From assembly GCA_029856525.1 (NCBI GenBank), contig JAHQXC010000003.1, positions 1-32,000 on the forward strand: a stretch of DNA of 32,000 bases, read 5' to 3'. Positions 17,259-21,957 of this stretch are shown here, piece by piece. How positions within the stretch are numbered: the first letter of the stretch is position 1; each line of letters opens with the position of its first letter. The translations under genes were made by a program, and so were the position numbers. The notes beneath the pieces are model-generated. The model was not told the origin of the DNA. It made no database searches and was given only the letters and a program-made list of their open reading frames with translations. Source of the stretch: Candidatus Odinarchaeia archaeon. Lineage in GTDB: Archaea > Asgardarchaeota > Odinarchaeia > Odinarchaeales > Odinarchaeaceae.

Positions 17259-17540
17259 TCTTCTTCTCCTCCTATCAGTGTAAATAGGCTTTTTTTATTC
17301 CTTTTTAAACACTTCTGTTCGTTTAAAGAATTATTATAAAATAAGCTTAAACTTGTTCATAAATTTTTTTATACATTTTTAAATGCTTTTTTTATTTTTA
17401 AACTGTTTTTTATCGTTTTATTTTATGGGAATATGCTTTAATTCTCTTATTTTATGTTTATTTTAAATATTATCGGAATCTTTATATCGAACAATTGCAC
17501 AATTTTTATTAGAATTATTATATTTTTTTTCGGTGCCGTT

Positions 17541-19115
17541 ATGCTGAAAACCGAATTCCAGTCAATCATCGAGACAACAATTAAAGATTATCTTGATAAG
17601 AAGACCGTGTGGAGTGAATTTTTAGAATCACCTATAATATTTAACGACGATCATATTCAAATAGCTCGTAGAATATTTCAAAAATATGTTTCGAAGATAA
17701 TCCCTGAAACTATACTAGAAGACCTCGAATACCTGCTATTATATAAGCTATCTGACGCTTCGATACGCCAAAGATTACTGGAAGAGTGGAGTAATAAAAG
17801 GAATTCAAATATAGAAGACGCTACTAAAATCACATATGAATTCGAAGACGGATCGTGTTATAGAGCTGTCTACGATCTTATTCTTTATGATAAAATGACC
17901 AGCGGCTTATTCCTTCCAACGATTTTAGAAAACATGAAGAAATTAGAGAAATATAATTATACTCTCGATTTAAAAGACGCATGCCATTATATACGTCTTC
18001 ACTCTCTTTTAACCTATACAGTTGAGTTGGATACAACGGATATCAAAATCATAGAATTGCTGAGCAAAGACCCTCTTATCTCAAATAACGAGGCTGCTAG
18101 CCGGCTCAGATTATCGAGAAATACTTTTTCAAACCGTCTGCTAAGACTTCAGAAAAGAGGCTGCTTATTTTTCAATGGCAGAATAAACCTTGAAAGACTA
18201 GGTTTAAAAATTTTAACGATCATGACAGATCAGATTATTCCAAAGCTACCATATATGAGAATTGTTCAAGAGCTTAGAGGAGGGTCAACCGTCTACCTTT
18301 ATTCGTTTAACATTCCTGAAGAGTTTCTAACCTCTTTTATTGAACTGGTTAAACCTTATATAAGAAACGCTGAATACTGGATTGATGAAGGACCTGGACG
18401 GCACTCTCTCTCACTAAGAAATTCCTATGATACTGTGAATAAGAAATGGGCGTTCAACTGGGAGAACTGGGCGTTATGGGTGAGAAAGGTTTTAGATGAA
18501 TCATGGCATACGCTTTACGTTTCAGGTGATGTAGAGGAATCAACTCCAGGGGGAGAGCATAATCTCAGAATATTAGATTATGATATACTAGACTTAGAAT
18601 TATTAAATCAGCTAAGCTATGACTTCAAGCAGCCTATACGGGATATTTCACTTAAACTAGGGGTTTCACCTACCACTGTTTATGAGCGTAAAATTCGTTT
18701 AATATCTAACGGTGTTGTTAAACCAACTTTATTCGTTGAAAATATAGGGTTAGATGAACATGTATTTATTAAAATTAAAGGATCGGAGAAAATCATAAAT
18801 TCTGTGGAATCAGGCTTACTAGATCTGCCGAGTGTGTACATTTTTCGGGTTAGAAATTTGCAAGGGGAGAAAGCACTTAACGCATATCTTTTTCTTCCTA
18901 AAGGGAGTCTTGTAATGGTTGATTACACTCTTAAAAACTATTTGGAAGATATGAGTGAGGAGGTTGATTTCAAGCTTTTCTACAGGCTTAAGCAAAACTA
19001 TCTCTCTCAGGGTTTACCGTTCACCTTCGAAAACACGTATTTATATAAGGAAGAGTTTAGAAAATGGATTTTCCCGCAAAAAACTATTATTAAAATATTA
19101 AAAGAAGGTAGCTGA
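17541..19115 (+). CDS. Large transcriptional regulator with two Lrp/AsnC-type winged HTH domains
   Basis: HTH1 LDTTDIKIIELLSKDPLISNNEAASRLRLSRNTFSNRLLRLQKRG (about 18027-18161). HTH2 LDLELLNQLSYDFKQPIRDISLKLGVSPTTVYERKIRLISNGVV (about 18588-18720). Each is followed by a beta/alpha region. ATG 17541 with CGGTG SD preferred over 17454. Confidence 0.8.
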   Translation: MLKTEFQSIIETTIKDYLDKKTVWSEFLESPIIFNDDHIQIARRIFQKYVSKIIPETILEDLEYLLLYKLSDASIRQRLLEEWSNKRNSNIEDATKITYEFEDGSCYRAVYDLILYDKMTSGLFLPTILENMKKLEKYNYTLDLKDACHYIRLHSLLTYTVELDTTDIKIIELLSKDPLISNNEAASRLRLSRNTFSNRLLRLQKRGCLFFNGRINLERLGLKILTIMTDQIIPKLPYMRIVQELRGGSTVYLYSFNIPEEFLTSFIELVKPYIRNAEYWIDEGPGRHSLSLRNSYDTVNKKWAFNWENWALWVRKVLDESWHTLYVSGDVEESTPGGEHNLRILDYDILDLELLNQLSYDFKQPIRDISLKLGVSPTTVYERKIRLISNGVVKPTLFVENIGLDEHVFIKIKGSEKIINSVESGLLDLPSVYIFRVRNLQGEKALNAYLFLPKGSLVMVDYTLKNYLEDMSEEVDFKLFYRLKQNYLSQGLPFTFENTYLYKEEFRKWIFPQKTIIKILKEGS

Positions 19116-20168: not shown

Positions 20169-21014
20169 TCATTTTTCAGTTTGAATTAAATCCTTTCCAG
20201 CAGACTCGAGAAATTCAAGCACTCTATTATAGTCTTTAAAGCGTATCCGCCCGTCTACACTTAAATATAAATCTTTTGTTTGTATCTCCGTCCAGCTTCC
20301 AAGCCGGCTTAAATCAATCTCTTGCCTTCTGTTAAGCTCTATTAAACCTTTCCCGACATCGCTGCCATGGAAAACAATTTTTTCAATGCCATCAGTGCCG
20401 CTTATCTCTCTGGAACAGGATAAGCTGGCTGTTAAAACATCTTTACAGTTTGAAACAAAATCTTTTATAACGTAAGCTGGGAAACTGATTTTATATAATT
20501 TTAAATTATAATTTTTTATTTCAGCTAAGATTTTATCGCTTTCTTTAAGACTGTTCCTGATAATTGCAACCGCTTTCTTCACGTCGAGAAATCCGATCAT
20601 GTTTTTATAAGCTTCCCGGATAGTGGATTTAACGCTTAATTTTTCAACGTTAAATAAATAATATGACTCTGATTTCAAAGGTTTTTCAATCCATAGATAA
20701 GTTTTATCAGGGTTATTTAACTTTTCTAAATCAAGTTTTAAACTATAGGCTGAAGAGATCTGTTCGATTTTATATAGTGTCCAATCATTCTCCCAGAAAA
20801 CGTTTTCAGAATTTAAAGTCTTTTGTAATGCTAAATATAAGCTGATTAACCTTGGCATCTTCTTGTAATCTAAACCTGCTGCTAACAATTCTTTAAGTTT
20901 AACACCTGTAAACCCCAGATACTTATAGAACTCCTTCAACTCGCTTTGACTGTATTGTTTTAATAATTTAGAAAGGGGGATTGTATCCACTGTTGGAATG
21001 TTTATTCTACTCAT
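20169..21014 (-). CDS. Hypothetical protein, possible CENP-N/Chl4-like
   Basis: 281-aa ORF, probably a real gene. The family call is tentative, from recalled motif similarity (GLDY..M..L..YL, DWTLYKI, FHGSDVGKGLIEL.RRQEIDLSRLGSW). Confidence 0.4.
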   Translation of the reverse strand: MSRINIPTVDTIPLSKLLKQYSQSELKEFYKYLGFTGVKLKELLAAGLDYKKMPRLISLYLALQKTLNSENVFWENDWTLYKIEQISSAYSLKLDLEKLNNPDKTYLWIEKPLKSESYYLFNVEKLSVKSTIREAYKNMIGFLDVKKAVAIIRNSLKESDKILAEIKNYNLKLYKISFPAYVIKDFVSNCKDVLTASLSCSREISGTDGIEKIVFHGSDVGKGLIELNRRQEIDLSRLGSWTEIQTKDLYLSVDGRIRFKDYNRVLEFLESAGKDLIQTEK

Positions 21015-21347
21015 ATATTCTGCTTCCAGTCTATAATAATTAAAAATATTTAATATTATCTCAAAGTATATAAGCTATAACCTGAATTAAAAGTTTAGAC
21101 TAATACACACCTTTAGTTTTAAGATAGGAGAGGCATCGATTAAAAATTGTTTTATTATAGCGGTGTGTAAAAACGTTTAAATCATGGATGCCACGGTTAA
21201 ATAATTATATTGTTAACGAGATAAAAACAGGTTTTTAGAAATATTTTATCAAAGCCATCATAGAAATCCATGGGTTTAAAGATATGAATGCTTCCGCTTT
21301 AACTTCACAGCAGACTATCTGATGTAGATAGGTGAGAGTTGATATTC

Positions 21348-21364
21348 TTATAAAGCTATATAAA
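21348..21364 (+). promoter_or_regulatory. Candidate TATA box(es) for the E2F-like transcript
   Basis: TTATAAA at 21348-21354 and TATATAAA at 21357-21364. Predicted start near G21381. Confidence 0.45.
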
Positions 21365-21381
21365 TTATAATTATAAATAAG

Positions 21382-21448
21382 GATGAGTGGTGGAAGCGGC
21401 CCTGAAACCTGTGAAGAGAAGAACTCTTCTCAATGAACAGGACTCATC
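21382..21448 (+). ncRNA. Candidate structured RNA (5' leader or sRNA)
   Basis: GATGAGT 21382-88 pairs with ACTCATC 21442-48. CCTG 21408-11 pairs with CAGG 21438-41. Internal hairpin GAAGAG-AAGAA-CTCTTC. Confidence 0.35.
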
Positions 21449-21510
21449 TGTGAAAAACAAGTTGTAGATCACCCGCTAATATTTGTTTAAAAATAATCGA
21501 GGCGTCTGTT

Positions 21511-21957
21511 TTGAAACTTATAGAGCTGACTAAGAAAGTAGTACACTGTCTCAGGAATTCGCCTAAACCTTTATCTGCAGTTGAAATAAGCAAGCAAATA
21601 AATCTCCCTATTGAAAAGAAGCGGAGAATCTATGATGTTTTAGACGTATTAGAGGTTTTAGATGTTATAAAAATATCTCGGCGTGGTAATGAGAAATTAG
21701 CTCAATGGATTTCTTCAACAGAGAAACCTGTTGTAAAAGAGTCTTTAGCTGTTGAGAGAAAAATAGAGGATAAGCCTCACTGCGTTGTTAACGTTGACTT
21801 AGTTTTCCCTTCATCCGATTATAAGAATTTAAGTAATCCAACCTGGCAGGAAATGATGATTAGAGATGTTAAAAGAAACATTAAGGGTTTACTGGATATA
21901 ATCGTTAACGATATTAAATTAACGGAGGCTAAGAGGATTCTAGCAGCCAGTCAGTAA
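21511..21957 (+). CDS. E2F/DP-family winged-helix DNA-binding protein
   Basis: L..LT.K.V..L (helix 1), KRRIYDVLDVLEVLDVI (E2F/DP recognition helix RRxYD..xVL), then QW at the end of the wing. TTG start with GAGG SD. Confidence 0.8.
   Translation: MKLIELTKKVVHCLRNSPKPLSAVEISKQINLPIEKKRRIYDVLDVLEVLDVIKISRRGNEKLAQWISSTEKPVVKESLAVERKIEDKPHCVVNVDLVFPSSDYKNLSNPTWQEMMIRDVKRNIKGLLDIIVNDIKLTEAKRILAASQ

Follow-up and report, generated by a model that had tools for sequence, protein, structure and literature searches.

[quoted passage not shown] The gene is already published by name and is not a new one: its translation is letter-for-letter identical to the entry 'E2F/DP PF02319 Odinarchaeia_RPA3..RPA3_01140' in the ESP table of Eme et al. 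(2023, Nature 618:992), which bears out, for this exact protein, the surmise of an earlier sequence-only reading that Asgard surveys may already list such proteins. The same table contains the orthologs from LCB_4 and J65_bin_29, and the RPA3 MAG was recovered from New Zealand hot-spring sediment at 63 °C (Eme et al., 2023). The authors list the Asgard E2F/DP proteins under PF02319 and arCOG02749, argue from the conserved base-contacting residues for eukaryote-like DNA motifs (Supplementary Information 4.1.5), and state that archaea outside the Asgard group lack the family and that its Asgard members have no dimerization domain. The closest database relative, with 83% identity, belongs to Candidatus Odinarchaeum yellowstonii (LCB_4) and carries the NCBI name 'E2F family transcription factor', and a 2024 review includes E2F among the Asgard homologs of cell-cycle regulators. 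The literature searched contained no characterization of the DNA binding, the oligomeric state or any other biochemical property of an Asgard E2F-like protein. Our description of the protein differs from that in the published ESP set by the predicted homodimer tail and by the division of the Asgard homologs into at least three architectures; the self-pairing tail, which is a model-based prediction and a modest addition, is the sole point that goes beyond, and against, the published statement on dimerization. Few transcription factor families of the eukaryotic cell cycle can be traced to a prokaryotic relative; E2F/DP is one of them, and its relative is known only from Asgard archaea. Should the dimer prediction be confirmed, the reading of two half-sites by paired E2F-type winged helices would be older than eukaryotes.

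The complete coding sequence starts with TTG, ends with TAA at 21955–21957, and is preceded by a GAGG ribosome-binding site (21499–21502, forward strand) located 8 nt 5′ of the start. The TTG is the first possible start after the in-frame TGA codon at 21451–21453, and no ATG or GTG start exists upstream of it in this frame. The TTG start, the GAGG site and an 'MKL' N-terminus are common to three same-genus orthologs, and the rbs_motif GGAG/GAGG is given for orthologs in the ESP table (Eme et al., 2023). The open reading frame, with its RRIYD motif at 21622–21636, is exactly as the sequence-only reading had described it, and the peptide strings quoted there are those of our checked translation. 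Pairwise dN/dS values among four Odin orthologs, including the gene studied here, are 0.06–0.15 at dS of 1.0–2.8; therefore, this is a real coding gene under strong purifying selection. A profile search of the source Odinarchaeia genome (1.32 Mb, 93% complete) identified a single copy of PF02319, and each of three same-genus genomes, one of them a closed contig of 1.4 Mb, likewise has one match. Thus, the source genome, at 93% completeness, contains no second E2F/DP family member that could serve as a heterodimer partner. Among public sequencing runs, the stretch was located in one sediment metagenome, possibly the source of this DNA, and in no RNA data set.

The E2F/DP-type winged-helix DNA-binding domain is delimited by Pfam, by the AF2 model and by profile matches in the PDB, and it spans residues 4–66 (21520–21708, forward strand). 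The Pfam model E2F_TDP (PF02319) matches these residues with 36.3 bits (E 4.7e-9), against a curated cut-off of 25.7 bits, and the genome search returned the same span. It is the sole Pfam model above its own cut-off; the next winged helix-turn-helix models, Rok and TrmB, reach 13–16 bits versus cut-offs near 26 (TrmB, 13.1 versus 25.6), and no MarR or ArsR model was found in the Pfam scan at E up to 10. E2F_TDP is also matched by 11 of 11 members of the subfamily to which the protein belongs (type B, described below). An exhaustive search of 1.84 billion representative proteins with a five-sequence Odin profile retrieved eight proteins at E up to 1e-3, namely, five small archaeal proteins with PF02319, two eukaryotic E2Fs (E 2.4e-6 and 4e-4), one of which carries E2F_CC-MB, and one long low-complexity protein without PF02319, which we regard as spurious; no other winged helix-turn-helix family was retrieved. 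When the subfamily profile was compared with all PDB sequences, the only matches were E2F4 (4.3e-6), E2F8 (6.5e-5), and DP2 (1.4e-3), whereas MarR, ArsR and TrmB chains, many of which are in the PDB, were absent from the matches. The archaeal E2F/DP-type winged helix that had been read from the letters thus stands, and the Pfam check proposed for it returned E2F_TDP and not a generic family.

In the AF2 model of the protein (mean pLDDT 77, about 79–90 in the winged-helix domain), helices are formed by residues 3–16, 23–29, and 34–49, followed by a wing hairpin of residues 53–58 and 61–66. The RRIYD motif (residues 38–42, codons CGG AGA ATC TAT GAT) falls within the N-terminal portion of recognition helix 3 and aligns with the RRIYD of E2F4 (1cf7_A) and of E2F8, so that its predicted mapping to the recognition helix is supported by both the model and the alignment with 1CF7. 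The conserved wing tryptophan, Trp66 (codon at 21706–21708, forward strand), aligns with the Trp of E2F4 and DP2, and R38, R39, Y41, D42, and W66 are invariant in 16 of 16 diverse Asgard homologs. Fold comparison of the type-B and type-A models, by Foldseek (PDB) and VIA-align (48,161 chains), returned generic winged helices only: the top matches, which cover residues 1–79 only, are of the Z-alpha, MarR, ArsR, and Fur types with Z of about 9–10, and no E2F or DP structure occurs among the top 50. Since the fold searches do not separate this protein from generic winged helices, the E2F assignment comes from sequence comparison alone, by which the N-terminal 66–70 residues qualify as a true relative of the eukaryotic E2F/DP DNA-binding domain.

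The winged helix is followed by a variable, poorly conserved linker modeled with low confidence (residues 72–87, 21724–21771, forward strand; pLDDT below 50) and by a C-terminal alpha/beta domain that constitutes the predicted homodimerization module (residues 88–148, 21772–21954, forward strand). AF2 models this domain as a small beta-alpha-beta unit; the earlier description of a small C-terminal alpha/beta domain therefore holds in kind but not in length, which is about 60 rather than 70 residues. The tail belongs to no Pfam family: no consistent Pfam match was obtained across 11 type-B members, and an ESM Atlas feature search with residues 86–148 returned no usable match. Within the tail, F99, L107, M115, R118, D119, K121, R122, and L137 stay conserved in homologs as distant as 28% identity. 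No long helix follows the wing in the AF2 model, and neither E2F_CC-MB (PF16421) nor DP (PF08781) was matched at E up to 10, while the positive control P0011 was matched by PF16421 at 8e-27; the noted lack of a coiled coil and marked box is thus confirmed.

Prediction of a two-copy complex gave an ipSAE of 0.45 (0.43–0.46 in three runs), which is only just over the mark of 0.42 set by the tool, versus 0.00 for the best of three unrelated proteins used as controls; the runs agreed in at least 86% of their contacts, and the partner pLDDT was 67 or higher. When the tool was calibrated, this mark was reached by 20 of 30 same-chain-pair structures and by 1 of 23 single-chain structures, counts that apply only roughly here because the dimer prediction used an author-supplied alignment. 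The confident interface is confined to the C-terminal domain (residues 88–101, 103–104, 107, 116, 119–120, 123–124, and 126–140). Strand 91–99, which is not formed in the monomer model, pairs in an antiparallel manner with its twin around residue 95 (93:97, 94:96, 95:95), and strand 126–140 packs on the paired strands; conservation within the tail is highest in these predicted interface strands. The dimer model contains no confident contact between the two winged-helix domains, which sets it apart from the DNA-binding domains of E2F4 and DP2. The complex model thus predicts that the C-terminal 60 residues form a two-fold symmetric, strand-paired dimer, and this control-passing result favors the homodimer that the sequence-only reading had suggested, with the interface placed in the C-terminal domain only.

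Among the 400 genomes of the phylum, 136 have a PF02319 match above the cut-off, mostly in single copy. The distribution is patchy at the level of Asgard families, with nearly all members of some families having a match, as opposed to 0 of 31, 0 of 22, 0 of 14, and 3 of 135 in four others. The extracted E2F-like genes fall into at least three architectures. Type A proteins (about 167–200 aa) consist of the winged helix, a helix of about 39 residues (78–116, pLDDT above 90) and a four-strand beta domain, and they occur, by source labels, in Thor-, Jord-, Hel-, and Baldrarchaeia and in the sister Odin genus. The short form (114–123 aa) comprises a winged helix and a beta domain, with no long helix between them. 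Type B, the form of the gene at 21511–21957, is distinguished from the other Asgard forms by a three-residue insertion (I-E-K) before RRIYD, and its variable linker leads into a tail of about 60 aa that includes a conserved RDxKRN helix. Clustering at 90% identity divides type B into 43 groups, whose members come from Odinarchaeia, Hermodarchaeia, and MAGs labeled Thor-, Hod-, and Promethearchaeota. Comparison of types A and B by hhalign, both from the same phylum, aligned the homologous winged helix only (residues 1–71, 99% probability, E 6.7e-18), whereas their tails gave no alignment. The coiled-coil subfamily aligned with a eukaryotic E2F at 96% probability (E 1.3e-9).

In the sister Odinarchaeia genus, the two genomes G298 and G300 encode both a syntenic type-B ortholog (152 aa) and a type-A paralog; the latter paralogs (182–193 aa), in which a coiled coil is combined with a beta domain, are located at L038 672–1253 (reverse strand) and L039 711–1259 (reverse strand). 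All four genomes of the source genus have type B only, and this genus has either lost the type-A paralog or never had one. A tree based on the winged helix only (80 rows, 78 columns, with E2Fs as the eukaryotic sequences) did not resolve the backbone; in it, the eukaryotic E2Fs form a long branch next to a single short Asgard form (support 93/88), a placement that may be due to long-branch attraction. Since the sister genus has both forms, type B is a paralog or variant with its own tail and not a demonstrable ancestor. The proposal of a minimal, ancestor-like E2F is thus not sustained, given the subfamily-specific tail, the existence of at least three architectures, the co-occurrence of both forms in the sister genus and the lack of resolution in the tree backbone. 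A broader joint reading would hold, against the published statement, that the Asgard E2F-like proteins possess at least two unrelated dimerization modules, the strand-paired alpha/beta tail of type B and the coiled coil plus beta domain of type A, that the latter module is the structural precursor of the eukaryotic E2F-DP coiled coil and marked box, and that the Odin paralog pair prefigures E2F and DP; taken as a whole, this reading is speculative and on balance unlikely.

The change of Asn to Asp noted within the extended motif is real, being present in both the translation and the alignments: Asp45 (codon at 21643–21645, forward strand), three residues past the Asp of RRxYD, stands where eukaryotic proteins have the invariant Asn of RRxYDxxNVL. 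Position 45 is fixed as Asp or Glu across type B, while the other Asgard homologs have Ala, Asn, Ser, or Leu; type A proteins mostly have Ala, and Asn occurs among them only in the Jordarchaeia group. Because the position varies among Asgard homologs, the Asn is a feature of the eukaryotic clade and not of the wider family, and its replacement by Asp is no argument against membership in the E2F/DP family.

With the DNA-binding domain of eukaryotic E2F1–6 and DP1–2 (E2F4-DP2-DNA structure 1CF7), the Odin protein has in common a winged-helix fold, a helix 3 that bears RRxYD and the 'YDxxxVL' pattern, and the Trp of the wing, with E2F4 being the best PDB sequence match to the type-B profile. Compared with these eukaryotic proteins, the Odin protein is 148 aa long, has Asp in place of Asn, and lacks the N-terminal arm before helix 1, the coiled-coil and marked-box region, and the transactivation and pocket-protein-binding parts. 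A second point of comparison is provided by E2F7 and E2F8 (4YO2): after E2F4, the PDB sequences best matched by the type-B profile are the DNA-binding domains of E2F8, and E2F7 and E2F8 bind DNA without a DP partner. In E2F7/E2F8, two winged helices arranged in tandem on one chain provide the two-domain binding (PMC4686757), whereas the Odin protein has one winged helix per chain, which would be doubled via a separate predicted dimerization domain.

Based on the sequence relationship and the complex model, we propose, with moderate confidence, that this single E2F/DP-family winged-helix protein functions as a homodimeric sequence-specific DNA-binding regulator of a two-half-site element. Each winged helix would contact DNA via the RRxYD motif on helix 3 and the intact wing Trp, and the tail dimer would hold the two recognition helices on flexible linkers of roughly 16 residues, so that an element with two half-sites would be read. 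By analogy with E2F homodimers, which prefer GGCGCC (PMC4686757), this element perhaps has a G/C-rich core, while the Asn-to-Asp change and the missing N-terminal arm could alter DNA-backbone or flank contacts. Because the Odin protein is without the coiled-coil/marked-box, transactivation and pocket-binding parts, its control, and probably its regulon, would differ from the eukaryotic G1/S circuit.

The proposed G/C core is plausible by this analogy and from the conserved base-contacting residues, but the sequences inspected give no sign of it. The 496 bp upstream of the gene (21015–21510) contain no E2F-type G/C-core site, and neither TTSSCGC nor SGCGCS exceeds its chance frequency in the window. 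An alignment of the upstream regions from four same-genus genomes contains no GC-core element; its conserved parts are limited to promoter-proximal, A/T-rich sequence and the GAGG site. Across some 207 kb of intergenic sequence, as defined by our own ORF calls, the observed versus expected counts of palindromic 6-mers are 11 versus 15.6 for GGCGCC, 19 versus 17.8 for GCGCGC, and 28 versus 18.8 for CGCGCG; none of these counts is convincing, and GGCGCC and GCGCGC are not enriched.

These searches bear directly on the reading in which the protein is a functional forerunner of E2F, that is, a cell-cycle or replication regulator acting on TTTSGCGC-like sites, with its neighbors forming a proto cell-cycle locus. 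The invariance of the base-contacting RRxYD in Asgard homologs would fit such a role, as would the similar DNA motifs suggested by Eme et al. (2023), the listing of Asgard E2F among cell-cycle regulators in the review, and the locus itself, where the 281-aa ORF, the PDCD5-like dsDNA_bind gene and the 87-aa gene keep their places around the E2F-like gene across Odinarchaeia and where a tail-to-tail PDCD5-like neighbor is seen again in another Asgard family. However, E2F-type sites are absent upstream and not above chance in the window, GGCGCC and GCGCGC are not enriched in intergenic DNA genome-wide, and the protein has neither a marked box nor a pocket-binding region. The neighbors are convergent or divergent and not operonic, and a Rab-like GTPase gene intervenes between the 281-aa ORF and the E2F-like gene in the same-genus genomes. 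Moreover, PF01984 proteins, to which the PDCD5-like neighbor belongs, are general archaeal proteins. The family is also missing from many of the Asgard families, as given above, which is odd for a core cell-cycle factor; this patchy distribution argues against any core indispensable function. We therefore consider a direct forerunner quite unlikely, and a cell-cycle role for the protein is speculation.

Two further alternatives concern the two halves of the protein separately. That the N-terminal half belongs to a generic archaeal regulator of the TrmB, MarR or ArsR kind, with a resemblance to E2F due to chance or convergence, could be argued from the MarR, ArsR, Fur and Z-alpha structures that head the fold matches, from the weak sub-threshold TrmB matches together with some Asgard relatives that reach the TrmB cut-off, and from the name 'GbsR (MarR family)' given to one relative by JGI. 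This alternative is largely refuted and very improbable, as E2F_TDP is the only Pfam model to pass its cut-off, the profile searches of the PDB and of the 1.84 billion proteins return E2F/DP and no MarR, TrmB, or ArsR, the coiled-coil subfamily aligns with a eukaryotic E2F in the hhalign comparison, and RRxYD and the wing Trp are invariant. For the C-terminal half, a module acting chiefly in sensing or partner binding, for example with a small ligand held at the dimer interface in the manner of ACT- or RAM-type domains, and with dimerization secondary or conditional, would account for the charged helix motif R118-D119-x-K121-R122-N123, which shows little or no variation even at 28% identity and is only partly buried in the predicted interface, and would suit a tail that is a small beta-alpha-beta unit. 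It is a proposal from these features only, no Pfam, Atlas, or fold match to a ligand-binding family was obtained, and we judge it improbable. A homodimeric regulator with an E2F/DP-type winged helix thus remains the preferred reading of the protein.

The gene order around the E2F-like gene is conserved across Odinarchaeia: a gene for a 553-aa protein with two AsnC-type HTH domains, a 73-aa ORF, a 168-aa ORF, and a 281-aa ORF precede it, and the PDCD5-like dsDNA_bind gene, an 87-aa gene with no Pfam match, an adenylate-kinase-like gene, and a radical SAM/SPASM gene follow. The neighbors are divergent or convergent and thus are not operon partners of the E2F-like gene. The PDCD5-like gene (PF01984, 21960–22331, reverse strand) ends 2 nt from the stop codon of the E2F-like gene, and this tail-to-tail arrangement is kept across Odinarchaeia and is also found at locus L021 of genome G109 from another Asgard family. 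The 281-aa ORF (20169–21014, reverse strand), to which no Pfam model matched at E up to 0.01, adjoins the E2F-like locus in all genomes compared and is 59–73% identical within the genus and about 40% identical over roughly 99 aa in the sister genus. The 553-aa protein (17454–19115, forward strand) has matches to PF13404 and PF13412, is unusually long for an Lrp/AsnC-type regulator, and is conserved across Odinarchaeia, with 88–90% identity within the genus and 38–39% in the sister genus.

In three same-genus genomes, a gene for a 184-aa Rab/Ras-like GTPase is located 53 nt 5′ of the E2F-like gene on the same strand (L032 3233–3787). In the corresponding 496-bp interval of the window (21015–21510), a TATA-like box, the ribosome-binding site, and the first codons of this GTPase gene remain (HTFSFKI, 21106–21126); the rest of the interval has no tblastn match to the GTPase and is filled with unrelated sequence. 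The interval thus differs from a usual intergenic gap. Rfam and ARAGORN searches across the window found nothing. Within the interval, the region 21330–21452 contains a promoter-like element of about 60 nt, GAGAG.TGATA.TCTTATAAA ... AATAAGGATG, that is 78% identical with two other loci in the source genome (G000 C93:3538–3598 and C119:716–773); none of these three loci is matched by an Rfam family. At all three loci the element is followed by G+C-rich sequence, and in the window the segment 21381–21449 folds to −24.5 kcal/mol (z −2.8). The region 21330–21452 may be a small non-coding RNA gene that took the place of the GTPase gene.
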